A stretch of DNA of 64,000 nt from a virus. The DNA lies in the IMG/VR virus record IMGVR_UViG_3300029349_000001, positions 64,001-128,000 of that record. One strand, 5' to 3'. This document shows, piece after piece, positions 1,770 through 31,755 of the stretch. Numbering within the stretch: position 1 is the stretch's first letter; every line of letters starts with the position of its first letter. The notes beneath the pieces were generated by a model, which saw only the letters and a program-made list of their open reading frames with translations, made no database searches and had not been told where the DNA came from. A program made the position numbers and the translations under genes.

Positions 1770-4700
1770 ATGGCCACATCATGCACAAGCAATAAAACAA
1801 TTATACCAGCTCAGACACTATTTTTGGGAGCTAGTGTTGCGGATTTTAGTTTAAATATGGGTTGGGGAGGACAAGCTTCTCAACTTAGTGTCACACTGGT
1901 GGAAGACGGTAATCCGTTTATGTGTAGAAATCCTCTTGGAAGTTCTGGAGGTAGTTTGGTTGATCCTATTGTTGTAAATGGTGGTTCGTTTGATGCCGAT
2001 AACCACTACCATACCTGTAATAGCGATACCTCATGTTATATGGACGAGAAAGGAATGACGTTTGATCCTAATAGAAATCCTCCTTCTCAAGAAAGAATTG
2101 TTCCAGGAAAGGTATACTATGCTTGGACTGGTAATGGCTTTGTTTCTAGATATTGGAGACATCAAGATCCAGGATTTTTTGGAAATAAAAGCTCTATAGC
2201 TATCGATGGTACCTATGATGTTAATTCTTATAATAACTCTAAAGGCTTTGATATTATCAATACGCCAGTATTTTTTAAAATAGGAGAGTTCAGTTTTAGC
2301 GGTATTGTTCAGTCGTGGGAGAAAGACGCTGGTAGTGGAGGATTGACTTACAGAGTTAATATCGAGAGTATAGATTCTCTTTTAAGCAATTCTTATATGA
2401 TATTAGGAGGATATGCGGGTTCGGTATTTTCAAAACTAAACGGTGCTATATATGGAGGTCCTAAAAATTATACCGGATCAGGATTAACATATAATGGTAA
2501 AATAGTAGAAGGAAATTTAGCTAATGTATTTAATGTTTATGGTTTTTTGGAGTCTATGGGCTTTGAAGGTTTTGGTGCTTCTTATAGAAATGAGAACGGA
2601 ATTAGTGCAAAGTCTGTTATAGACGCACTTTCTGTTTTAACCTCCTCTGATTCCACAGGAACGGACCCTGCTTTTGCTTTAGTGCAAGAACAGAAGAAAG
2701 CATTTTCTCCATTTGGACGTATAATTCTTAAAACAGCACAAGAAAATGATACCTATACCAGAATGAGTCCTTCTCATGCATATAGTATGGGTTTGATACC
2801 TCCTACTCTTGATCTTGATGGAATTGAACGATGTCATTTTACATTAGATTTATCAGAAATGCCGATTCCTCCTAATGACTATCGTATTACAGACAATGTA
2901 TTAAGTATTATGGATTTTATATCTAATGTATGCGAGGCAACTGGAGTTGACTTTTATTTTGATATGTTGGTAGTACCATATAATAATAAGCCTTTGAATA
3001 TGATTAAAGTTAGAACGGTTAATAGAAGAGTACAACCAGAGCCAAGACAAATAGAAAGAACTATAAGAAACTTTGCAGATAATGGATTCCCTATGTCTGC
3101 CGCTAATATAGGAAAAGAAAAAAGCGATAGTTCTCCAAGAGTTCTCTATATTGGAGGAAAGCAGCAAAGGCTCTATCAAGCAAAAAGTTATAGGCTGGGC
3201 TTTGCTAGAGCTAATTATGTATGGAATCCTGTTAGTAAAACATTCGTAGATTTTACATCTTATGATTTTGGTAAAATCAGAACTCCTTGTGGTTTTTCTA
3301 CTCGTAATACCACTTTGTCTACAAATATTAATGGGGCAGATTTTACTGATTTATTTGATACAGATGAGACTATCAAGCAAAACATAACAGGGCTGGCTTT
3401 TGATGCTAACGACACAGACTGGGCCGACCCTAACCTATCTGGCAATGCTTTGTCTGGTAATTATGGAAAAACCAAATCTGTCAAAAGACAATCTACTAGC
3501 ACATTCAATAGATTCTTTCCACTATTTCAAGATGTAATATGTCCATTTTTTGGTTTCCAAATGAGTGAAACCATACCTCCCAACACCTCTACTACAGAAA
3601 ATAATGATTTTAGAATAGTCAGGCCCGTTTATCTAGATACATGGACCGGTCAGATAGTGTTTGTTATTAGTATGTCCGACCTACCAACGAACCTCAATGT
3701 GCCATTAACTTCTCTATACAACAAGAATCAGTTAATTATTACCGAAACAGAGATGCGTGCTGCTATGGAAGGTATTGATTCTTATATGACCTATGGACTA
3801 GGAAAGATATTTAAACCAGATTTGATACTAATGCTAGCACAGGCTTATGCCAGTAGAGGTGTGGCAATGACGGGGGTTGGTGAGGAGAATGAGGGGTTTT
3901 TAAAATTTCCTAGTTTATCTCAAGCCTTTAATATCAGTAATGAGGTCGGTGCTCCGGGAGCAGCAACTCCACAACCAACTAGTAACGATATCAATTTTGA
4001 TTTATTCTTAAATCCTAATTTAGTCAAAGATCTAAATACACTAGTTGGATTCATACAGGATATTGGTAATACTTATTATGGCAAGCAGTATCTTGTCAGA
4101 GTTCCAGAATTAGCGGCATATAGAGATTACCAGTACAGCAATTTTCAGATACCTGTTGGAGATCAAACCATTTCTGTTTTTAAGGGAAGTGGTAAAATAC
4201 AATATAATTATGAACCCATTAATGAAGGAGCATGGGAAGAGCCGGGCAATGTTATAGATGACAGTATTCTGGTTGGTAGTCCAAAATATTATATGCTTTG
4301 TGAGGAAGATGGGCGAATCGGCCCAGTCCTAGGATATAATGCTTCTGATTCTTTTGATTATGTGTCTAGGGCTCTTTGTGGACTAAGCGTAATAGCACAA
4401 GCAGCATATTACGAACAAGGATATTCAGTATCTACTCCTGGTGGAGACAGATGGCGAAACGGTGCTTTGAGATATGATATGAAAGTGTTGGTAGACGCGG
4501 CTCGTGCTGGCGCATGTAACGATAATAAGTTTTATTTCTTGTCTTTGGATCTAAGCTCTATTAGCTCTGATGAATATGTGGTGGTTGATTCTCCGGTTGC
4601 TTTGCGTGGACCTTACGATGCTAGTGTTGGTGCTTTTGGTCCAGCGATTAATCCCATAGAAAAATCTAAAAAACTATATACCAAAGCATCTGTTCATGAG

Positions 4701-7911: not shown

Positions 7912-10900
7912 ATGTATCCTATTAATACCAAAAACAACTGCACTATTTACAGTAATTCTTTTTTGAATGATTTAGACGATCATGCAATAGAAGATATATT
8001 GTTAGACACTAGGTTGCAATCTGGAGGAACTGAGGGAAATAATTCAGAATATGGCGCTAGACTGAAGTACAAATTGCAATCAGAAACATCCAGTATTGTC
8101 TGCAAAATAACAGATATGCGTAGTTTACTGACTACCTATACTCCATCAACTTCTCCTAATTATAATTGGCTACCAGCAATTATTAATCATGATAATTATA
8201 TACAAAATAAAGAGATATTAGCTGGCACTGTAATTGGCAACAAGGTTTTGGGTATAGAAAACTTTATTAAAATTCAAAATCCAAAATTCAAAAATTGGTC
8301 TATATTAGATGATGGTAATTCTCCCAACACAGATGGTTCCTCTATATCCATAGATTGGGTTATCAATTCAAATCTAACCTCTATAGAACCGGAATATGGT
8401 GTTTTGTATTGGTATAAAAAAAACGAACCAACAGCAACTAATACTACACAATACCCAATAGACAAGCTGCCCTCACGAACTATTGTCTCGCCAGTTAGCA
8501 ACATTGTGAGCAATGATACCAATAGTACTGTTTTGGCAACACCCCAAGATAAACTTATTAAGATAGATAATAATATATTAAAATTTGTAGATAAAAGTCC
8601 AGTATCTTGGAATTCTGGTACTGATCCAGTTTTTGATTATGGAACAAAAGACAATCAAAATTTATCTAAGTCTACTATTGATATATCTGGAGCTAGAAAT
8701 AATGCCGCTATTAGATTTTATGCTATAAATAGTCAAAATTTTCTAAACAATCAACAAAACTTACTATTTCCAGATTATCAAATTTGGATAGCAGACGGAG
8801 AATTTTATAGCTATTTTAATAGCGCCAGAGAAAAACATGATTTTCAAACGCATAGACCAACTAAATGGCCATCTAGATCGTATATATCTCCGGGGATGTA
8901 TCATGTATATAGGGCTATTTATAATGCTCTAACTGTTGATCGCGTCAAAAGTTTAACAACGATAGGCACAGTATGCTATGCGGAAAAATTAAGGAAATTA
9001 TGTTGCATACTAGCTACTAGTCCTTTGATTGATAGAGTAACTATAAATTGTTTGTATAATGCTAGTATTAAAGATCAAGTTAATACTTATCTAAATGCTC
9101 CAGCTTCTAGCTCAACTAATGAAGAGGTAAGAGCGCTACTGGATATTATAAATGTGATCACTAAAGAGTTAAGTAATCTAACGGATAAAATAGAAAATCA
9201 AACCAATAATAATAATTATATACGCACTCCATCACAGCTATACAAAAAACTTAAGTCTAAATATTCTGCTAATTTACGGATAGAACCTCAACAAATCAAA
9301 AAGATCAAATTTAATAAAACTCTGCCCAATGGCGCCCACGCATACTTTGATTTGAATCACAAAACCTTCTGTCCCAAAAATACAAGACCATCCACAGAGA
9401 GATTTCCTTCTTATATTTATAATAAATTTGAATATACAGTAGGTGATATTGTTATTAAGAATAGTTTAGACATTAACAACAATAAACTTAAATCTCAGTC
9501 ATTACGGGTTTTTTCAAATGCTGATGACACAACTATTCGTAAAGATGTTCCGTGGGATATTACCAGATTGGCCACTAATGAAAAAATAAGACTAAATTTA
9601 GGTCCAGACATAGTTTTGCCATTTACGCCAGACAACGGAGAAATGATACTAAGCTACGACTTAGACTTATTGGGGGATTTAGACTGTTTTTGGCAGTTAG
9701 TGGATGGACCGGAGTGTTTTAGATTTAGTCATTTTGCAAAAAACGGACGAATAGACTTTATAAAGCGAAATAAAATTTCAACAGATTCTCGACCTAACTT
9801 TTATGTAAAAAAACCTGGAGTATACACGGTAAGATGTCAAATTACTAAATCCTCTACTTTAAAAGCATCCGACACTATAAGACTTTATATTGGCGTACCG
9901 AATCCGGACGTACCTCCTAGAACAGCAGCAGACAATACTGATACTGTTACGAATAAATATAATCCTCTATGTTCTAATCTTAGGCAATTTGCCGTTAATA
10001 AATATGGATTATTCTGGGTTATTGATAGTGATGTTTATACAATAGCGCAATCTAATCGACAGATTATCACAGATACCACAGCCTCTGAAAGATTATTAAA
10101 TCAAAAACTTGGTCTGGATTTTGAACCACAAGTAGTAAGAAATGCGGATGTTGTTTTTAAATTCGAAACATTGACCACTACAGTTAAGTTACATTCTGTT
10201 ACTATAGAAAACATGAGAGATTCTTTAGATTCAACCAGCCAATGTAAAAGCTTTTATCAAGATAAATTGGTTAGACAAAGAGATACTAGGATTACAAATA
10301 TTAACACATTCGTTGCTAGATATATCAGACAAGACCGAGGCGGAGATATATTAACTTTTTATGGTAGAGGTTATGACAATGACGGCAGAGAGGTTAGATT
10401 CAGTGAAGAATTTAGCTTCCCCTATCTGTCCACAGTATTGGCACCAGGGATAAGGTCTTATGGCGGCTATTCTAATAATGTAGTTAATACTATTGGTGTA
10501 GAAATTCCATTTCATCCAGTATATGAAGGTTCTTCTTCCAGAACGTTATCTCTTTATAAATTACCAAATGGTAATTGGGGTGGAGGATCCGATGTTAATC
10601 CGATAATGGCTAAAAAGCCTTATATAATGCCACGAATGATTGACAGAAACAACATGAGTGACAATAATCCCAATACTACACTTAAATGTAGTATGATGGA
10701 TATTCCTGTCAGCGGATATACAACACTAAATAAAGGGTTTTTTCATCCTAATTCTGGATGGTTTCCCGGCAGTACTAGTCAGACCTATCCTTCTGTGTTA
10801 CAAAATATAGGTGATAGTGCCTATAGTTCTTTATCTTCTCATGGCAAGAATATCACATCTGTACACAGATATAAAGTATATAGATATAAATCTTACTATT

Positions 10901-13900
10901 TTAGTGGTAATGGAATTTTTGATATGAGAGGCATGACTCTTGGAAATAATACTTCACATAATACATACTTAAGTCGTATATTAATTAAAGACGCATCAGA
11001 ATCCTCTTCTTTTCTCTTTGATCACAATTCTAATCAAGGATATAGAAATGTAAATGGTGTTTCTTATAGATCTCAAGAATCAATAGATGACTTATATATA
11101 GACCGCTGCACAGATAATGAAACAGAAGAGAGTTTTGTTTGCGAACCACAATTAGATAATCTTGCTGGTGATTGTTATCCTGGTATTGCTACTTCTATGT
11201 ATTCTTTGCCAGAAGGTGGAGGTATTAATAATTTGTTTATAGAGGATCTAGAAATTAAAATTAATTTTTTGAACTATCCTAATCCTAAAAATATGATTTT
11301 AGCTCTGGAAATTTTTAATCCCACTTTGCCAGCACTACCAGAATTTAATAAGATTTTTATATCTAACGATAAGCAAACAACAGGCGTAGCAGATTTGGAT
11401 ACTTATATATCCGCCATAAATACTATGAATACGTCAACTGATGAACGGTCGAGAATTATATACTTATATAACCAAGAATCTATAGAGAACTATAATTTAA
11501 ATTTTAATTTATTATTCAGTGACAACTATAAGCATCAAGCGGTTTTTGACGACTCCAATAAATATGATCAATATTTAAGCCATTTGAATAAACCTATACA
11601 TTCTGATACTCCGATTAGATCTACTCTGTCTTCTAATAATTACTCAGATAGACAGTCAGCGAAATATAAAAAAGCAATAAACAACAATCTACTCCCGGTA
11701 TCCTCTGCTTCGCTAGCCAAGTTTAAAAATATTCCATTAAAAGATACGTCTTTTATTTTGAAAGTAATAATACTAGGTACAGAAGAAAATGCTTTAGCTA
11801 TGGATAATGTAGTTAATAATTCTGAGTTGTCTGGATTAACATCTTTTGAGACAACACGTAAAAGTAATACAATAGCTAATAGTATTTGTTCTTGGGATCT
11901 CATAGTACATACTAACAAAACACCCAAGTTCCATAATAAAAATCCAAGAGGTCATTTAGACTATGATAATAATAGTAATTCTGTAATCAAAGGCTATAAT
12001 TTTATTGGTGATTTTACGAATAAAACATATTTGATTCCAAAAGTTAATTTAAATGCTCCTTATCAGTATTTAGCTAATATTAATTATTATTGTAGATATA
12101 TTAATGACGACGAATTATCTAAACCATTAACATATCAAGAATTAAGATTTCCATTCGTATTTTTTTCGTGGACTCCGTTTTTTACGCTAGCGGGAGCTAT
12201 GTTTGCAGCATGGGAAATATCGCAAGCTTTTAGTCGAGGCGGACGTAGTGACCCTTTAGTAAGCTTCTTATATGATCTTAGATTTCAAAGAATGCAGGAA
12301 GAGTTAGAGCGTAATTATTTTCAGCCTGGATATGAGGCAGTTGCTCAAGGATACGCAGACAAAGCTCTAGTTCTTTTAACTAAAGACGATGTATCTTGGT
12401 ACAAGATGGAGGTTCCTATAAATAGGTACGAACACTCCGATATTCTAAAGCTCAAAAGATATAATTATATTAAACTAAGTTCTAGTACAGCCAAGCCTCT
12501 ATCTATGCTAAAATTTAGCCTTGTTACAGAGGACAAGCAACTAACAGGACCGGCGGAGATCAAATATACTTTTTCTACAAATATAGGACTCTCAGGACTA
12601 GAGAAGACAGTACCGAATCCATCGGACTCAAATAGCACTATAACATTAAAATTTGACGAAGGAGACGTGGTTGAATTAACTGGACAAACCACAGCCGCCA
12701 ATAATGGTTTATATGTGGTAAAAACCGGAGCATGGGTGAGATTTCCGGATACAAGAGATATTAGATTTTTAGTAAATAATAGATATGGCAATAGTACCAA
12801 CACCAATAACCTGACCTCGGCAAATATCACTGCCAAAAAAATTATCAAAATTAAGGGAGCCAGAGCCTTTCATTTTTTCGATATTAATGATTCAGTATCT
12901 ATGTCTGCTAATTTCCAACAAGAGAATCCCGTTTCTTCAACAATATCAGATAAATATTTAATTAATATTACAGATAGTGTTTATACAATACTAGTGCTAA
13001 ACGCTGGTCTTTCTAGTCTATCAGAAGGATACGTATATAAAAATACAAACAATACTCTTTTAGTATATAGTAGTAATGAAACTATTAATGACGATTCCAC
13101 TATAGGCAAATGGGGCCTTGCTAAGTCTACCGAAGAATTAGGAAATAGACTAGTTAGTAAAATAGGCCATTCGGCAATGGGTGAGGGCAATTATGGATAT
13201 GGTACTCCATATGTGGATCCAGACACATACTCTTCACTATCATATGACTCTAATCATATTAAACAAGTATATGACACGATGGATAATACAGCAAATGACG
13301 CCTATAAATATAATAAGATTTTCTTAGAATCTAATGGCACTAATACAACTATAGACTTTGATCCCGATACAGACTCACCCGCACAATTATGCAAATATTA
13401 TCCATTTAGTATAAATGACTATGATTATGCCAAAGACACAGCGGGATATCAACAAATTTTAGCCAGTGAAACCAACGCAGAGGATAAAGCAAACCTGAAT
13501 ATAGATTTAGTAGGCTCCATTTTACAACCAGATAAACAAAGCTATTATTTTATGGATCTTAAATCAGAAAAATTTAGCAATGTTGCTGAAGCTGGTTATT
13601 TATATATAGAAAACGATTACATTAAATATAAACCAACACAAAAACTATCTACTGCACAAAGAAATTCTATTCAACAAAGAATTGATTTTATTTCTACTAC
13701 AGGGATACCACCTGCTGATTTGCCAACTACGTCTATTTCCAATATAGATAATATTCCGGATCTATTAACAGTATACAGTACTACAGCTGAAGAATTAAAT
13801 GTTTGTCAATATCCTAATTTCAGTAATACTGGCAGCGCATGTAAAAAACAACAATCCAAACTGAAGTTATTGCAACTGTGTGACGAAAGGGCCAAACTGC

Positions 13901-14823
13901 TCAAGATTTTAGAGAATGATGATATGTCATCTCCTAATGTATTACCAATATATGAAATTATTTATAATACTATACCACAAAATGGACAAGCGGGCGTTCC
14001 TCCAAAAATTAGTATAGAGTATAGAACCAAAGACTATTTTTGGTTTAATATTGATGCTAATCAAAGCTGTTCTTGGGCCTCCGAAGCAATGCCTAGAATT
14101 TTATATCAAACAGAATATAGATGTTCTCCTATAGTCGAGTTTTATCAATATCCTGAATGCAATTCGGTTTGTTTATTTGAGGAGGTCAAAGGAGGAGCCG
14201 ATTTTGATATGTTAACAGAAAATGGTATACAAATCTTACAAAATAAAAAAGTAGAGGAAGAAAAAGCAAAATATCCGCAAGTTACAAATTGGGGCTTAGA
14301 TACTGAAACATTTCACGACAGAGTAGAGAAAAAATTCTTTTTATCATGCGGAGAAAATTTTAGAGATACATTATTAACAGTCAGAGAGAGATATTTATAT
14401 CCAAAAATTGATGCAACCCAAAGATTTGGCGCTGTTAAAGATGTATTTAATTTAGACAATACCGATAGCATAAAAATGAAATTTAGAATTATACCAAGAA
14501 AACTTAAAACTATTGATCCTATTTTTCAGAGATATGTTTATGACTACAATGGAAATTTGGCCAAGGATATTATACCACCTCCAGGCGGCCCTATGTTTAA
14601 TGGCTTGTCTATTTGGAGATGTATAGACTTTAATAGGAATTCTCCTAATTTGGGTAAGATGGTTGATCCGCCACTATTCTTCAAGGTACAAAATGAAATG
14701 ATTTTTAGGGCATATTTTGGTAGTACAGACGGCATCGAAATTAAAAATTCTCCTATATCAGAAGCTAAAGAATTTTGGGAATGGATACCGTATGAATATT
14801 TTGATGGACCAATTATAGAGTAA
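7912..14823 (+). CDS. Giant (2303 aa) putative virion/tail protein with PKD-like and proprotein-convertase P-domain-like segments
   Basis: FWQLVDGP...KKPGVYTVRCQIT is PKD/Ig-like; IEDLEIKINF...NMILALE...ICSWDLIV is P-domain-like. Confidence 0.55.
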   Translation: MYPINTKNNCTIYSNSFLNDLDDHAIEDILLDTRLQSGGTEGNNSEYGARLKYKLQSETSSIVCKITDMRSLLTTYTPSTSPNYNWLPAIINHDNYIQNKEILAGTVIGNKVLGIENFIKIQNPKFKNWSILDDGNSPNTDGSSISIDWVINSNLTSIEPEYGVLYWYKKNEPTATNTTQYPIDKLPSRTIVSPVSNIVSNDTNSTVLATPQDKLIKIDNNILKFVDKSPVSWNSGTDPVFDYGTKDNQNLSKSTIDISGARNNAAIRFYAINSQNFLNNQQNLLFPDYQIWIADGEFYSYFNSAREKHDFQTHRPTKWPSRSYISPGMYHVYRAIYNALTVDRVKSLTTIGTVCYAEKLRKLCCILATSPLIDRVTINCLYNASIKDQVNTYLNAPASSSTNEEVRALLDIINVITKELSNLTDKIENQTNNNNYIRTPSQLYKKLKSKYSANLRIEPQQIKKIKFNKTLPNGAHAYFDLNHKTFCPKNTRPSTERFPSYIYNKFEYTVGDIVIKNSLDINNNKLKSQSLRVFSNADDTTIRKDVPWDITRLATNEKIRLNLGPDIVLPFTPDNGEMILSYDLDLLGDLDCFWQLVDGPECFRFSHFAKNGRIDFIKRNKISTDSRPNFYVKKPGVYTVRCQITKSSTLKASDTIRLYIGVPNPDVPPRTAADNTDTVTNKYNPLCSNLRQFAVNKYGLFWVIDSDVYTIAQSNRQIITDTTASERLLNQKLGLDFEPQVVRNADVVFKFETLTTTVKLHSVTIENMRDSLDSTSQCKSFYQDKLVRQRDTRITNINTFVARYIRQDRGGDILTFYGRGYDNDGREVRFSEEFSFPYLSTVLAPGIRSYGGYSNNVVNTIGVEIPFHPVYEGSSSRTLSLYKLPNGNWGGGSDVNPIMAKKPYIMPRMIDRNNMSDNNPNTTLKCSMMDIPVSGYTTLNKGFFHPNSGWFPGSTSQTYPSVLQNIGDSAYSSLSSHGKNITSVHRYKVYRYKSYYFSGNGIFDMRGMTLGNNTSHNTYLSRILIKDASESSSFLFDHNSNQGYRNVNGVSYRSQESIDDLYIDRCTDNETEESFVCEPQLDNLAGDCYPGIATSMYSLPEGGGINNLFIEDLEIKINFLNYPNPKNMILALEIFNPTLPALPEFNKIFISNDKQTTGVADLDTYISAINTMNTSTDERSRIIYLYNQESIENYNLNFNLLFSDNYKHQAVFDDSNKYDQYLSHLNKPIHSDTPIRSTLSSNNYSDRQSAKYKKAINNNLLPVSSASLAKFKNIPLKDTSFILKVIILGTEENALAMDNVVNNSELSGLTSFETTRKSNTIANSICSWDLIVHTNKTPKFHNKNPRGHLDYDNNSNSVIKGYNFIGDFTNKTYLIPKVNLNAPYQYLANINYYCRYINDDELSKPLTYQELRFPFVFFSWTPFFTLAGAMFAAWEISQAFSRGGRSDPLVSFLYDLRFQRMQEELERNYFQPGYEAVAQGYADKALVLLTKDDVSWYKMEVPINRYEHSDILKLKRYNYIKLSSSTAKPLSMLKFSLVTEDKQLTGPAEIKYTFSTNIGLSGLEKTVPNPSDSNSTITLKFDEGDVVELTGQTTAANNGLYVVKTGAWVRFPDTRDIRFLVNNRYGNSTNTNNLTSANITAKKIIKIKGARAFHFFDINDSVSMSANFQQENPVSSTISDKYLINITDSVYTILVLNAGLSSLSEGYVYKNTNNTLLVYSSNETINDDSTIGKWGLAKSTEELGNRLVSKIGHSAMGEGNYGYGTPYVDPDTYSSLSYDSNHIKQVYDTMDNTANDAYKYNKIFLESNGTNTTIDFDPDTDSPAQLCKYYPFSINDYDYAKDTAGYQQILASETNAEDKANLNIDLVGSILQPDKQSYYFMDLKSEKFSNVAEAGYLYIENDYIKYKPTQKLSTAQRNSIQQRIDFISTTGIPPADLPTTSISNIDNIPDLLTVYSTTAEELNVCQYPNFSNTGSACKKQQSKLKLLQLCDERAKLLKILENDDMSSPNVLPIYEIIYNTIPQNGQAGVPPKISIEYRTKDYFWFNIDANQSCSWASEAMPRILYQTEYRCSPIVEFYQYPECNSVCLFEEVKGGADFDMLTENGIQILQNKKVEEEKAKYPQVTNWGLDTETFHDRVEKKFFLSCGENFRDTLLTVRERYLYPKIDATQRFGAVKDVFNLDNTDSIKMKFRIIPRKLKTIDPIFQRYVYDYNGNLAKDIIPPPGGPMFNGLSIWRCIDFNRNSPNLGKMVDPPLFFKVQNEMIFRAYFGSTDGIEIKNSPISEAKEFWEWIPYEYFDGPIIE

Positions 14824-26273: not shown

Positions 26274-26301
26274 ATTATATGAATCGGGCCTGTGGTGTCA
26301 A
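26274..26301 (-). promoter_or_regulatory. Sigma70-type promoter of ssb
   Basis: Minus strand TTGACA-16 nt-TATAAT (perfect hexamers). Confidence 0.8.
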
Positions 26302-27920
26302 GTCATAGGCTCAAAACACTTTGATACAACCAGACCGTCTCCTGTTTTCGTTTTATCGCCAAAAAATACAAGAATATTTCCTTCAAATAGATGGTGCTTA
26401 TACTCAGCCAATTGTTCTGGAAACATTATCAATGAGTCTAATATTCCTACAGAATCTTCGATGCTGATAAATGCCATTTCTTGTCCTGGGTTTTTTCCTC
26501 TTTTAGTTTTGATAAAATTAACCGAAGAAATTTCACCAGCAATAATAACGTTTTTGTTATATGCAGAAGTTTTAAATGTTTTGCAGTCGGTGTTTGTCAT
26601 TGTCGTGTCGTATGTATCTAGTTTAGAACAGGACAATGCAACCCCGAGCAAACCGTTTTCAGAGTCTGAAATCCACTCTATCTTATCTGTTAAAGAAAAT
26701 GGAGGATGTTGTATTGTATGTATTAGATTATTAATTGCTTCTTTTCTTTTTGTTGTAAGCTTAAGGGTGGCAACGCCATCTAATAACATCTGTTCCAGAT
26801 TTTTGTAGTTTTTGACTAGTCTTAGTTCATTGAGTTTTTCTAATTCTTTTGCTGTTAATGCTGATAGAATATCTAATTCCAACAACATTTCCGTGCGAGT
26901 CTTTTTACTAAAATCTACAGCACCACAAGAAATTAGTGATTTAGCTGCGGCAGAGTTGATATTTAGTAAAATATCTATGAGAATATCATACCAAGACAGA
27001 GCATACAAATCTTTACCAGAACAAATACCTAATAGTTTTTTATATACTGAAGCTCCGACAGCCTTTATGTCCGTTAGGCCAAAATATATCTCTTTGTCTT
27101 TGATGTAAAAGAATTCATTTAAATTACGTAAGTCTGGTATTCTGATACTAATACCCATGCTATTAGCATTTCTAACTAATTCTTTAATTTCTTGCTGTGG
27201 ATCAATTTTATCTTTAGCATATCTGAGATATGAAGCAAAAAATATCCTTGGAAAATGTGCTTTGGCATAGGCTGATAAATACGCATTAACCGCATAAGAC
27301 ACAGCATGACTAGCGTTGAACAAATATCTCTGACTCTTTTCGATCCATCCGAATATCTGTTCTGCTTCATCCGTGGTAACAATACTCAGTTTAGCACACC
27401 CGTCGATAAATTGCTTTTTAACCTTGGCCATTTTATCGGCTTGTTTTTTGCCGATAGCTTTTCTTAGTTCATCAGCATCTTGAAGATTGAATCCGGCAAC
27501 AGACTTAGCAATACCCATCGCCTGTTCTTGATAAACCATCTCTCCGTATGTTTCCTTAAGAATAGGCTCTAACGCAGGATGGAAGTAGTCAATAGCCTCT
27601 AATCCGTTTTTTCTGTCTATATAATGATGAGATACGCTCTTTCCATCTCGATAAGCTTCCAAACATCCCGGCCTTAAGATAGAAATTAGTGCAGATAATT
27701 GTTCTATATTTTCCGGTTTGAGTTTTTTTGCCATAGATTGGCCCAGCCTTGATTCTAGCTGGAAACATCCCTTGGTATTGCCTTCTGATATCAACTCCCA
27801 TGTTCTAGAACAAGACAGATTGATATTAGCAATATTAGGATCAAAAATAATTTTGGGAGTTGTTGAATGTTCCGATATAGGAAATTTACAACCACAATCA
27901 AATGTAAAATAACTTGACAT
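26298..27920 (-). CDS. dnaE: DNA polymerase III alpha, C-terminal half (fingers/HhH/OB)
   Basis: GCFQLES, LRPG, ETYG..VYQEQ, ADELRKAIGKK, FNASHAVSY, OB-fold MAFISIED. Confidence 0.92.
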   Translation of the reverse strand: MSSYFTFDCGCKFPISEHSTTPKIIFDPNIANINLSCSRTWELISEGNTKGCFQLESRLGQSMAKKLKPENIEQLSALISILRPGCLEAYRDGKSVSHHYIDRKNGLEAIDYFHPALEPILKETYGEMVYQEQAMGIAKSVAGFNLQDADELRKAIGKKQADKMAKVKKQFIDGCAKLSIVTTDEAEQIFGWIEKSQRYLFNASHAVSYAVNAYLSAYAKAHFPRIFFASYLRYAKDKIDPQQEIKELVRNANSMGISIRIPDLRNLNEFFYIKDKEIYFGLTDIKAVGASVYKKLLGICSGKDLYALSWYDILIDILLNINSAAAKSLISCGAVDFSKKTRTEMLLELDILSALTAKELEKLNELRLVKNYKNLEQMLLDGVATLKLTTKRKEAINNLIHTIQHPPFSLTDKIEWISDSENGLLGVALSCSKLDTYDTTMTNTDCKTFKTSAYNKNVIIAGEISSVNFIKTKRGKNPGQEMAFISIEDSVGILDSLIMFPEQLAEYKHHLFEGNILVFFGDKTKTGDGLVVSKCFEPMT

Positions 27921-27925
27921 ACAAT

Positions 27926-28621
27926 TTAGTTCGTGGCGAATGATCCTCTAAATTTAACCTTTTTACCTAAATTCCTGTGCAGTCTTAAGAATCTAATAAG
28001 AATATCGGCAGTATCTCTAACGTCCTTTAAGGCGTCGTGAGCACCCTCTTTTGATATTCCCAAATAGTCTCTTAGGTTATCTAATGTATAGTTTTTAAGT
28101 TCGTTGTTAGATTCAAACCAGTAGAATATAACATTCATTACATCAACAACGTCTCTAGGATAAAATAGTGAAGACCTACCTTCTTTATTGAGGTTGTTAT
28201 ACTTCTTACTAAGCCTCTCGATAATACGAAGATCAAATCTATTAATATTGTATCCTGCTGCAATTGGGGCAGTAAAACAGGATCGCTTATCGGATCTAAT
28301 ATGATACTTTTCTAGATAAGACAAGAATAATTTCCAAGATTGTTGCTGAGGCGTATAAGAATGCCACATTTTTAATATGTCATCTTGTGAACAACCACGA
28401 ACCTTTGAATGAAATTCTAGTATATCAGAATCAGAATATGTATATGTAGAATCGGCCTCAAGTTTCTCGGGCTTGATACTAACATTGAATTCTGAGTCTG
28501 GTATAATTTCTAGTCTTAATGGATCGACAATAACCGCCGCTATTTGAACTGGACTGCATGAATCCGGATCGGATCCATCGGTTTCCATATCAAACACACA
28601 AAGTTTTTGAAAATTAGGCAT
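27926..28621 (-). CDS. dnaQ: DEDDh 3'-5' exonuclease (Pol III epsilon-like)
   Basis: DMETDG, GYNINRFD, HDALKD. Confidence 0.88.
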   Translation of the reverse strand: MPNFQKLCVFDMETDGSDPDSCSPVQIAAVIVDPLRLEIIPDSEFNVSIKPEKLEADSTYTYSDSDILEFHSKVRGCSQDDILKMWHSYTPQQQSWKLFLSYLEKYHIRSDKRSCFTAPIAAGYNINRFDLRIIERLSKKYNNLNKEGRSSLFYPRDVVDVMNVIFYWFESNNELKNYTLDNLRDYLGISKEGAHDALKDVRDTADILIRFLRLHRNLGKKVKFRGSFATN

Positions 28622-28796
28622 TTACTTGTACCGTTGTATCCTCTGTAAAAAATGACTTAACTGACGAGTTATTTACTTCTTGAGCATTGATAGACTTGCA
28701 GCAACTTACCCTTACTGTTTCTATCTTAACATATTCCATTCCATTGACAAAAAATCTATCATTAACACCAAGTTCATTAAATTTCTTATCTACCAT
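28614..28796 (-). CDS. Small hypothetical protein
   Basis: GGAG SD upstream; overlaps the dnaQ start. Confidence 0.65.
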   Translation of the reverse strand: MVDKKFNELGVNDRFFVNGMEYVKIETVRVSCCKSINAQEVNNSSVKSFFTEDTTVQVNA

Positions 28797-28798
28797 GA

Positions 28799-30676
28799 TT
28801 ATTCTCCATTTTTAAGAAAGTCAGATATCGTCATAATTTTATCTAACATGGCTACGCCAAGGATATCAAACTTAATCCCACCTATCGCTTCTAGGTCTTG
28901 CATTTCCATACCAGCAATAGTTTGTTTATTTTTTGTGTCATAAACCATAGGACACATATCTGATAATCCTTGACTACTGATTAGTACACCAGCCGCATGT
29001 TTCGATTGATTAGACTTAGTTCCTTCCAGACGAATGGCTTGTTCAAACCTTTTGGCTAGAGGACCGGCCAACTCTCCGTCTTCATTAATATAGCACCACT
29101 CCTTGAGTTTGTCAACATTGTTTTCTAAGGCCCAGCGGATTATGGAAGATTCGCCAGTATCATCTTTCATTTCTTGGAGTTCGTCGGCAATTTTTGCTTC
29201 GTCGGGAATATGTTTGGTAATACGATTCATTTCTTCGAAGCTAATATTATCATATGCCCTAAGTACGTCTTTTAAGGCGCCTCGACCTTTCATAGTATTG
29301 AATGTAATCATTTGAGATACCTTATCTCTACCATACTTATTCTTGATATAGTCGATTACTTGTTCTCTCTTATTAATTGGTACGTCTATATCAATATCTG
29401 GCATACTTATTCTATCTTTAGTATTTCTTCCAGCGTTATAGAATCGTTCAAATAATAGATTATATTTAAGCGGATCTATGCTAGTAATACCAATTAAATA
29501 AGATACTAAACAGCCAGCAGCACTACCTCTGCCGGGACCGGGTAACCATCCTTCGTTTCGTACATATTGTACAATATCTTGCACTATCAAAAAGTAACTA
29601 GACAGACCCGCACCCTGTAGAACATCAAGTTCAGATTTTATTCTATCTACATATTTCTGCTGTTCTTCTGTGCTGATATTATTCTGTATTTTTTCTTTCC
29701 ATCCATTTCTACATAATTGTCTCAAGTATTCGTCGGGATTGTAACCCTTCGGACAATCAAAGGATGGCAAATGTGGCTTGTCTAAGATGTCATATTCTTC
29801 GCACATCTCAGCGACTATATTAGTATTCTCTATTTCTGTTTCATTGTGCAAAGCGGATATTTCTTCTTGAGAGGGTATGTGATAGTTGTCCGATAAAAAG
29901 AAGCAATCCATGCCAATTGATTCTTGATTTTGTATTTTGCTATTAATTTTACTCAAAGTTGTTTTGAGATTATTACATAACAAAATCCTCTGATCCATAG
30001 CATCTTCTTTTTCTGCGTAATGAGCATCAGGAGTACATATAACCTTTGTGTTGGTTGACTTCCCTAAATCTCTAATAGCGCCAGTTAAACTAGCCTGTAA
30101 TGCTATATTTTCCTGGTCCATAAGTTGAGCTTCTAGAAATACATTTTCATTACCAAAAATATCTTTAATATTATGGATAAAGTTCGTCCCAAGATTCATA
30201 TAGTCTTTTTTGATTGTATTATTGTCGGTAATAATATTTGCTAGAGTAGAACCTAAGTGTCCTACTACAGCAATCATATTTCCGGTCTCGACTATTGATC
30301 TAAGGGTTTCTATGTCTAGTCTTGGCTTATGATAAAAATATTCTGGCTTATTAGATTCGGAGACTATTCGAATTAAATTCTTCCAGCCCTTATAGTTTTT
30401 AGCAAGTACTATAAAGTGCGATAGTTTGCGATTAGAGGGTTCTTGTATAGACGGATTCTGATCGCATATATAGAGTTCACAACCCAATATAGGCTTGATG
30501 CCCTTCTTGGTCATGTCACTATAGAATTTGACCGCACCGGCAATGTTACCATGATCGGTTAATGCACAAGACTTTGCTTCTATCTTTATGCATCTATTTG
30601 CAATTTGTTGAGTTTTACTTAGTCCATCCAATAGAGAATAGTGTGATTCTCTAAGAATGGACGTGTAAAGGAACAT
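28799..30676 (-). CDS. dnaE: DNA polymerase III alpha, N-terminal half (PHP + palm); true start probably 30695 in another frame
   Basis: HYSLLDG, LTDHGN, GCE, DAHY, GPGRGSAAG, PDIDID, SKHAAG, KFDILG. Confidence 0.92.
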   Translation of the reverse strand: MFLYTSILRESHYSLLDGLSKTQQIANRCIKIEAKSCALTDHGNIAGAVKFYSDMTKKGIKPILGCELYICDQNPSIQEPSNRKLSHFIVLAKNYKGWKNLIRIVSESNKPEYFYHKPRLDIETLRSIVETGNMIAVVGHLGSTLANIITDNNTIKKDYMNLGTNFIHNIKDIFGNENVFLEAQLMDQENIALQASLTGAIRDLGKSTNTKVICTPDAHYAEKEDAMDQRILLCNNLKTTLSKINSKIQNQESIGMDCFFLSDNYHIPSQEEISALHNETEIENTNIVAEMCEEYDILDKPHLPSFDCPKGYNPDEYLRQLCRNGWKEKIQNNISTEEQQKYVDRIKSELDVLQGAGLSSYFLIVQDIVQYVRNEGWLPGPGRGSAAGCLVSYLIGITSIDPLKYNLLFERFYNAGRNTKDRISMPDIDIDVPINKREQVIDYIKNKYGRDKVSQMITFNTMKGRGALKDVLRAYDNISFEEMNRITKHIPDEAKIADELQEMKDDTGESSIIRWALENNVDKLKEWCYINEDGELAGPLAKRFEQAIRLEGTKSNQSKHAAGVLISSQGLSDMCPMVYDTKNKQTIAGMEMQDLEAIGGIKFDILGVAMLDKIMTISDFLKNGE

Positions 30677-30695
30677 ATTTCCTATTCACGCCCAT
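30632..30695 (-). other. Out-of-frame 5' segment of dnaE (MGVNRKYVPLHVHS-stop) with 10-nt insert and hairpin; candidate recoding site
   Basis: SD AAGGAG at 30705-30710, ATG at 30695, TCT-TAG-AGAA-TCA, inverted repeat TAGAGAAT/ATTCTCTA. Confidence 0.7.
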
Positions 30696-30711
30696 CTATT
30701 TTGTCTCCTTA

Positions 30712-31755
30712 TTAAGTGGTGCTTCCTGGAGCCTTATATTGTCCAAATGCATGGTTCTTATTTTTATACTGGTTTGTTACAGTATTGATTCCGTACAGTT
30801 CTATTTCATGTTTAATTTGTTCACATTTGGTCATAGTGGAACCAGTACCACAAGTCTGACCATCTCTATATTCTGTTAGTGGCTGCACATGCGTATTGTC
30901 AAATGTGGTTTTGCCAAAATGACATAACTTGTTACACATCCAGCTTTTATTTAATTTGGGGCGTTTTGATTTTTTGATTATTTCAAATTTGTGTCTCAAC
31001 ATATTCTCAGTTTCGGCCAAGTCTTTTTTATCAAAACAGATGGAAAATGGACCGCCATCATTAATAAAATATATGGAAAAAATGATATGATCTATATGTG
31101 GATATAGATGACTAATAGCATAATGATATATTCTTAACTGAGGATCTCTTTCTAGCTTTTCTTGTGTCTTTTCTTCGCCGGTAGCCCAGTCTAATCGCCT
31201 GCCGGTCTTCCAGTCGATCACTTCTATGGTATTATCGTTGATCAGCGTGATCAAGTCAATAGTACCTTTTAGTGCAAGATTGCCCGAAATCTTACCGTCT
31301 GCCGTATCATATTCATAGGCAGACCACGGCTTCTTAATCTCGAAATCAAAGTGTTGTTCTGGACAAAGAATATTTCTTTTTCTTGGATCAAACATACCAT
31401 CATTAAATTCTATCGCTTTATAGACCCAATTATGGCAGTCTTTATAGTCTTTCAACGACCACTTATGATGTGGACTGTGAGTGGAATAGTAATTATATAC
31501 TTTTTCGATAATAGTATTTAAAGAGTAATTATTTACATCTAATTCGCCAACCACATCATCGATGACAATATTTTGATTATCTTGTTGTGCCTTTTTAATT
31601 ACAGCTAATATTTCTAGCACCTTGTGCGTAATAGTGCCTTTATCAGCCTTTTGTCCAGAAGGAGATCTCCAGCCTAGCACGTATTCTAAGTAATATTGTT
31701 GCTCGCACATTGAGTGCGTATTAAAGCTAGAAGATCTAAAATAAGTAATAATCAT
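30712..31755 (-). CDS. PD-(D/E)XK RecB/Cas4-like nuclease
   Basis: GTITHKVLE, GTIDL, IDWKTG, QLRIY; one N-terminal Cys plus C-terminal CNKLC..C. Confidence 0.85.
   Translation of the reverse strand: MIITYFRSSSFNTHSMCEQQYYLEYVLGWRSPSGQKADKGTITHKVLEILAVIKKAQQDNQNIVIDDVVGELDVNNYSLNTIIEKVYNYYSTHSPHHKWSLKDYKDCHNWVYKAIEFNDGMFDPRKRNILCPEQHFDFEIKKPWSAYEYDTADGKISGNLALKGTIDLITLINDNTIEVIDWKTGRRLDWATGEEKTQEKLERDPQLRIYHYAISHLYPHIDHIIFSIYFINDGGPFSICFDKKDLAETENMLRHKFEIIKKSKRPKLNKSWMCNKLCHFGKTTFDNTHVQPLTEYRDGQTCGTGSTMTKCEQIKHEIELYGINTVTNQYKNKNHAFGQYKAPGSTT

Follow-up and report, generated by a model that had tools for sequence, protein, structure and literature searches.

A short, conserved coding gap at the 5′ end of phage dnaE genes as a probable minimal element for translational bypassing

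The stretch analyzed here, referred to as the window, comprises 64,000 nucleotides (nt) from an uncultured phage, the IMG/VR virus record IMGVR_UViG_3300029349_000001 (positions 64,001 to 128,000 of that record) and carries on its minus strand a dnaE gene whose 5′ end is interrupted by 10 nt (Table 1). A short open reading frame (ORF1), preceded by a strong Shine-Dalgarno (SD) sequence, encodes the HxH metal-ligand motif of the PHP domain and ends with a Ser codon that is directly followed by a stop codon. The protein is resumed with HYSLLDG in ORF2, which by Pfam contains the remainder of the PHP domain and the NTPase/palm domain of the DNA polymerase III (Pol III) alpha subunit. The SD sequence, the ATG, the TAG, and the +1-frame HYSLLDG, from which the original prediction of a ribosomal hop had started, are all present at the locus. 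The start codon of ORF1 lies 16 nt beyond the stop codon of the upstream PD-(D/E)XK nuclease gene, and its first three to four codons form an N-terminal extension that typical intact alleles lack. The ORF called by gene finders (30676-28799, 625 amino acids [aa]) begins instead at an ATG that is out of frame with ORF1. As had been noted from the sequence, its N terminus, MFLYTSILRES, lacks HxH, and its match to the Pfam PHP domain extends only from residue 11. No match to the region was obtained by megablast among 50,697 phage records, and a tRNA scan of the window found none.

Table 1. Positions of features in the window (codon and hairpin names follow the proposed mechanism)
Feature	Position	Strand	Remarks
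Shine-Dalgarno sequence AAGGAG	30710-30705	minus	9 nt 5′ of ATG 30695-30693
ORF1, 14 codons, MGVNRKYVPLHVHS	30654..30695	minus	carries the PHP HxH metal-ligand motif
Upstream hairpin, 5′ arm (start codon and next six bases)	30695-30687	minus	pairs with 30665-30657
Upstream hairpin, 3′ arm (His-Val-His codons)	30665-30657	minus	abuts the take-off codon
Take-off codon TCT (Ser)	30656-30654	minus	
Stop codon TAG closing ORF1	30653-30651	minus	
Coding gap, 10 nt	30653-30644	minus	TAG, 4 nt, landing triplet TCA (30646-30644)
Take-off hairpin, 5′ arm (stop codon and gap)	30653-30646	minus	8-bp stem
Take-off hairpin, loop	30640-30645	minus	6 nt, holds the resume codon
Take-off hairpin, 3′ arm (Tyr-Ser-Leu codons)	30639-30632	minus	
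ORF2, 614 codons and stop	28799..30643	minus	CAC 30643-30641 resumes HYSLLDG, +1 frame
ATG chosen by ORF callers	30674..30676	minus	out of frame with ORF1; MFLYTSILRES, then HYSLLDG
Upstream PD-(D/E)XK nuclease gene	30712..31755	minus	conserved neighbor, distinct from the homing endonuclease
60-aa ORF	28614-28796	minus	follows the DnaE N-half (PHP and palm); without family match
RNase_T/epsilon-like exonuclease	27926-28621	minus	
DnaE C-half	26298-27920	minus	fingers, HhH, OB domains
Two adjacent giant ORFs, 2045 and 2303 aa	1770-7907 and 7912-14823	plus	

Most of 120 close homologues start with the typical sequence M(K)NY(I/V)PLHxHSx(F/Y)SLLDG. In an alignment of the window with the closest intact allele (L272, the same as P0007; 82% aa identity), the coding line is interrupted solely by the 10 nt 30653-30644. 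The same 10 nt are absent from L272, which bears out the claim that removal of exactly this number restores the canonical start. About 29 extra nt are present further upstream in the window, from which the upstream gene gains a stop of its own and dnaE its SD sequence, new start, and three extra codons. SD-like sequences (AAGGAG, AGGAG, or AAGGA) were found in nearly all gap-bearing relatives, whereas intact alleles lack that SD and their ATG overlaps the stop of the upstream gene. One intact allele (L080, 2450-2545) still has the cassette-type SD and an N-terminal extension beginning with MG; it falls into a fully supported clade with L053 and L118, which both have the gap, and probably represents a precise loss of the gap.

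The dnaE 5′ ends of related phages were compared for similar interruptions. The same interruption, with a different sequence, is present in P0006 (83% identity) and P0053 (72%). In the set of the 80 closest IMG/VR loci, the gene is broken at this position in 21. Two pattern scans yielded a catalogue of 48 distinct elements. A third scan, independent of the stop codon, used only the upstream hairpin described below as its key and took no account of the sequence beyond it; each of the 51 true cassettes recovered has a stop after the Ser codon. (It superseded a broader stop-independent pattern, for which the matches listed were mostly unrelated DNA.) The gaps of the 48 elements measure 8 nt (three elements), 9 nt (10), 10 nt (17), 11 nt (17), or 12 nt (one), and open with TAA in 26, TAG in 20, and TGA in two. 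The codon before the gap is TCT or TCC in all 48. In intact alleles this Ser is encoded by AGT or AGC in 11 of 42 cases, with TCG and TCA also in use; the exclusive use of TCY in the catalogued elements fits a need to resemble a landing triplet of the form xCy. Indeed, the middle base of the last triplet of the gap is always C, and the triplet is itself a Ser codon in 33 elements. In the window the pair is UCU and UCA, synonymous rather than identical. Coding resumes in every catalogued element as (CAY or ATG)(TAY or TTY) TCN YTN YTG GAT GGA, which gives the canonical peptide (H/M)(Y/F)SLLDG. With about 50 distinct sequences of the same architecture from independent metagenomes, its recurrence is far above chance, and the prediction that inserts of Ser codon, stop, and spacer would be conserved among relatives, with covarying hairpins, was confirmed. 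The gaps of otherwise near-identical cassettes differ by single-base indels, which indicates that this stretch is not decoded.

One singleton outlier was found (L282, IMGVR_UViG_3300010234_000274, ~3752-3792, minus strand). It has a TCA take-off codon followed by TGA, 4 nt, and then GAA TAT TCA CTT, and can be parsed either as a gap of 7 nt, with Glu as the resume residue, or as one of 10 nt, with one residue missing.

Depending on gap length, the downstream frame relative to ORF1 is +2 (8 and 11 nt), 0 (9 and 12 nt), or +1 (10 nt). Since all three frames occur, only skipping of the gap gives one product in every version; an in-frame stop is present in the 9- and 12-nt forms. Codon differences among the 51 distinct sequences show to which frame each flank belongs. 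Within YxPLHVHS, 82% of the differences are synonymous in the ORF1 frame as compared with 9%–15% in the other two, and from the resume codon onward 81% are synonymous in the ORF2 frame as compared with 5%–6% in the others. Each flank is under purifying selection in its own frame, right up to the gap, and the residues directly 3′ of it (H or M, then Y or F) vary just as they do in intact homologues. An alternative genetic code was considered as well and rejected: TAA, TAG, and TGA are all found at the gap site, and the ORFs of the replication module (26298-31755) are open and tightly packed under table 11, with the other frames rich in stops.

The RNA around the gap can form two hairpins, and the minimum free energy (MFE) fold of the window segment contains both (−27.1 kcal/mol, z = −4.29; none of 200 shuffles was as good). 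The upstream hairpin, in which the start codon is sequestered, was absent from the original description. Its helix has 9–10 bp in the window, and across the 51 distinct sequences 98.9% of cells are paired, as compared with 31%–57% in slid-register controls. A compensatory pair is GC in 30 rows, AU in 18, and GU in three. An upper extension of this hairpin predicted in the window fold is not conserved (60% paired).

The take-off hairpin, with the 8-bp stem and 6-nt loop proposed at the outset, keeps one fixed register with 91.6% of cells paired. Its gap arm covaries with the synonymous sites of the Ser-Leu codons, giving matched arms such as TCACTA/TAGTGA, TCGTTA/TAACGA, TCGCTA/TAGCGA, TCTCTA/TAGAGA, and TCACTC/TGAGTG, and a switch of the stop from UAA to UGA is accompanied by a change from CUU to CUC in the 3′ arm. 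Native arm pairs have a mean stem energy of −5.44 kcal/mol and chimeric ones −3.27 kcal/mol, with the native mean reached by none of 2000 permutations. The resume codon lies 2–3 nt past the end of the 5′ arm in every variant, and gap length therefore tracks arm length. The take-off codon itself lies outside this best-supported stem. An alternative AUUCU/AGAAU stem, also proposed at the outset, would include this codon and is possible in 88.6% of cells, with neither covariation nor a level of pairing above that of shuffled sequences. The frequent G·U pairs indicate that the structures are selected as sense-strand RNA. A DNA-level cruciform, tried as the cause of the inverted repeats, was rejected because of these many sense-strand G·U pairs. 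The gap (30644-30653 and its counterparts in relatives) is purine rich and has several possible partners: the downstream Ser-Leu codons, the upstream AUUCY of the His-Ser codons, and, in several variants, the anti-SD tail of 16S rRNA (for example, a GGTGATC-like run in L013). A search of 30400-30900 on both strands against Rfam gave no family match at E values up to 1.

The element is real and conserved, and it very probably constitutes a new minimal natural bypass element. The most plausible account of the 10 nt in the window, to which we assign a probability of roughly 0.78 from comparative sequence analysis, is a programmed translational bypass, a short stop-hop by peptidyl-tRNA-Ser on the mRNA of the DnaE N-half. 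Ribosomes would initiate at ATG 30695, synthesize MGVNRKYVPLHVHS, and come to a halt with UAG, at the base of the take-off hairpin, in the A site and the P-site peptidyl-tRNA-Ser paired to UCU. The tRNA would then un-pair, the mRNA would slide by 10 nt, and the tRNA would re-pair with UCA at the top of the hairpin. Decoding would restart at CAC, and the product would be a single protein of 628 aa in which the PHP motif has its canonical form, HVHS-HYSLLDG. This arrangement of a Ser take-off codon, adjacent stop, hairpin, and Ser landing triplet had been put forward in the original prediction, and bypassing is the sole mechanism that explains all natural variants.

The forward slide may be driven and metered by re-zipping of the upstream hairpin at the exit of the ribosome. 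Its 9-nt 3′ arm, inside the ribosome at take-off, abuts the P-site codon, so that the hairpin can re-form only after the mRNA has moved by about the length of the arm (9 nt, for gaps of 8–12 nt). For gene 60 of phage T4, it has been proposed that bypassing is driven by base pairing of the mRNA as it leaves the ribosome (bioRxiv 10.1101/2024.12.09.627546). The take-off hairpin, in turn, may keep the gap out of reach of the anticodon while offering it the landing triplet.

Several observations are less easily reconciled with bypassing. Of the 48 variants, 15 have a landing triplet other than a Ser codon (ACT, GCT, or GCC), and the outlier L282 breaks the landing rule altogether, with no xCy triplet under either parse. 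The UCU to UCA hop in the window requires either a tRNA-Ser that reads both codons or pairing at two of three positions. The landing triplet sits atop a stable stem that must open. At take-off the nascent chain has only 13–14 residues, which makes a long nascent-peptide signal like that of gene 60 impossible. Drop-off is common for short peptidyl-tRNAs. Finally, synthetic stop-hops are reported to be inefficient, yet the gene in question encodes a replicative polymerase.

Four other explanations were weighed. If every variant used the standard recoding event appropriate to its gap, i.e., a +1 frameshift for 10 nt, a −1 or +2 shift for 8 and 11 nt, and readthrough for 9 and 12 nt, the proteins would contain three to four extra residues (HVHS-RES-HYS in the window). 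A-site stops are classically known to promote +1 shifts, and the downstream frame is open through the gap of the window (RES). This scheme nevertheless appears improbable: cassettes that are almost the same but for single-base indels would have to rely on three different mechanisms, re-pairing of the P-site UCU in the +1 frame (CUU) is impossible, the "codons" of the gap evolve as a stem arm and not as codons, and extra residues between HxHS and xYS never occur in the intact homologues examined. The +1 frameshift that had been listed as an alternative could in any case not be a general answer, as gaps of 8–12 nt cover frames +2, 0, and +1. It is likewise unlikely that the two ORFs give separate products, with ORF1 specifying no more than a leader peptide, a regulatory peptide, or a 14-aa fragment on its own, and the polymerase itself starting at ATG 30676 or TTG 30631-30629 without its HxH ligands. 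Gene callers picked exactly those starts, and the purine-rich gap resembles an SD sequence. However, ATG 30676 is replaced by ATA in L003, L004, and L005 (98%–89% identical to the window; L003 and L004 98%), where the callers revert to an L/MDGLSK start, so that this ATG, the internal start suggested originally, is probably not functional. Moreover, in the 11-nt forms the ORF2 frame offers no start codon 5′ of the conserved H/M-Y/F codons, the TTG is replaced by CTG in several variants, and the H/M-Y/F-S-L codons 5′ of it are under in-frame purifying selection. ORF1, for its part, maintains YxPLHVHS through five different Leu codons, and HxH is conserved in the intact homologues examined.

A precise excision of 8–12 nt from the RNA, by a micro-intron or a hairpin-guided cut and ligation, followed by ordinary translation, would be independent of frame and would fit all variants, and the two hairpins could guide an RNA enzyme. 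Such removal is nonetheless judged very unlikely, given that no bacterial or phage mechanism is known that excises 8–12 nt, that Rfam gave no match, and that the invariable stop after TCY and the xCy landing triplet are decoding signals for which splicing has no need. There is next to no likelihood that an inactivating indel, a template-switch mutation, or an assembly artifact in a decaying gene is responsible. The insert does complete a perfect inverted repeat, as in quasi-palindrome template switching, but this possibility, raised in the original prediction, is countered by about 50 distinct versions in independent assemblies, purifying selection on both sides, covariation, and an ORF2 of 614 intact codons.

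Programmed bypassing is thus preferred, and the distribution of the gap bears on how the element may have arisen. On a tree of 79 distinct DnaE N-halves, gap alleles are patchily scattered; the gap label changes 15 times, and at least 10 of these changes are forced by well-supported branches. The small clade of the window (with L003, L005, and L001) is entirely gap bearing. The window and L059 belong to different clades and share 55%–70% identity around the site, as compared with 97% in a 60-nt stretch that runs from 6 nt 5′ of the HVH codons across the gap. In six relatives (L002, L060, L098, L109, L119, and L123), an HNH endonuclease gene is located between the PD-(D/E)XK gene and dnaE, and its 3′ end overlaps the new dnaE start. 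The product of 235–250 aa has an N-terminal helix-turn-helix and matches phage HNH/endonuclease VII families (phrog_3322, 6e-24; phrog_374, 4e-18). Remnants of the gene were found in L122 and L116. Most gap alleles lack it, and no homologue of this endonuclease was found anywhere in the window.

The scattered distribution and the HNH gene suggest that a homing-endonuclease cassette left the gap as a scar or used it as an immunity device. An HNH cassette may have brought in the element, replacing the 5′ end of the gene at the same time, with the endonuclease gene since lost from the phage of the window. The gap would persist because bypassing keeps the replicase functional, and it may have shielded the allele from cleavage. 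The original prediction had the hop throttle or gate polymerase synthesis; nothing in the present analysis shows this, and the distribution and HNH genes suggest a cassette scar or immunity instead. There is perhaps an even chance that the ~95 nt from the SD to the Leu codons amount to a self-sufficient, portable bypass module spread by HNH cassettes among phage replicase genes, in which a re-zipping start-codon hairpin pulls the mRNA and the second hairpin sets a hop length of 8–12 nt, with no long nascent-peptide signal.

The replicative DnaE of the window is encoded in pieces (26298-30695, minus strand) by genes that are tightly packed or overlapping. This split order is present in full in L001, and L002 and L272 agree as far as their contigs extend. 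In L002 (237-2186), the upstream PD-(D/E)XK gene encodes 649 aa and additionally matches LAGLIDADG_3; this neighboring gene may hold a second selfish element, either an intein or an inserted endonuclease. Both giant ORFs on the plus strand were without match in a PHROGs search at 1e-5.

Programmed bypassing has long been known essentially from T4 gene 60, with homologous cases added later, leaving aside the mitochondrial inserts of one yeast; Streptomyces phages have provided candidates. Cases of the MobA/gene 60 element are all in the gene for the large subunit of topoisomerase II (Manning and Atkins, bioRxiv 10.1101/2022.08.31.505936), and a full-text literature search found no paper that links dnaE or the Pol III alpha gene with bypassing. 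If the proposed mechanism is correct, the dnaE element would add an independent case that is both minimal and abundant. Its ~50 variants in gap length, stop, landing triplet, and stem would form a natural mutagenesis series for models of take-off, sliding, and landing. The association of a homing-endonuclease cassette with a bypass gap would be a repeated one, suggesting a general way for such a cassette to break its own target inside an essential, invariant motif. A practical problem for annotation is that the dnaE genes of these freshwater phages are called with N termini that are truncated or incorrect and lack the HxH ligands.

Analogous to T4 gene 60 and its MobA cassette (see also Wills et al., bioRxiv 10.1101/2024.12.09.627546), the take-off codon is directly followed by a stop that lies within a take-off stem-loop, a second stem-loop is present 5′ of it, and the landing triplet lies just 5′ of the resume codon. 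In both systems the gap is in an essential gene of DNA metabolism, the alleles are scattered, and a free-standing HNH-type endonuclease gene, present here in six relatives, overlaps with its 3′ end the new N-terminal extension. The two systems also differ. There is no sequence homology; the gap of gene 60 is 50 nt (20 nt in one clade) as compared with 8–12 nt, its take-off codon is GGA (Gly) rather than Ser, and its gene encodes a topoisomerase rather than DnaE. The nascent chain of 13–14 aa has no long signal, which in the gene 60 type lies ~25–30 residues from the P site. In dnaE, moreover, the landing triplet is inside the hairpin loop, the start codon is inside the 5′ stem, the take-off codon is outside the best-supported stem, and the endonuclease gene is missing from the window and from most gap alleles.

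The byps of Magnusiomyces capitatus mitochondria are also short noncoding inserts that are skipped in translation, often with imperfect take-off and landing pairs and two-of-three pairing, but they seem to be independent of mRNA context, place an unused codon in the A site, and occur at 81 sites in many genes read by mitochondrial ribosomes (PMC5009743). The dnaE element, in contrast, occupies one site in one gene family and has a true stop codon and a conserved RNA context. With +1 frameshifting of the prfB type it shares an A-site stop after a short leader ORF and SD-like purines nearby, yet it has no slippery P-site codon (UCU to CUU is non-cognate), and the resumed frame occurs in all three phases. 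A further parallel is provided by the synthetic stop-hops of Escherichia coli, designed with matched codons on either side of a stop, in which a peptidyl-tRNA makes a short hop over the stop to a similar codon a few nt downstream, in any frame (PMC5009743). Short hops of this kind had been shown only with synthetic constructs, and a 2016 review stated that no natural in-frame stop-hop was known and that shorter natural counterparts of gene 60 had long been expected (Atkins et al.; PMC5009743). Those constructs were engineered and had no dedicated structures, whereas the dnaE element is natural and conserved and includes two selected hairpins.

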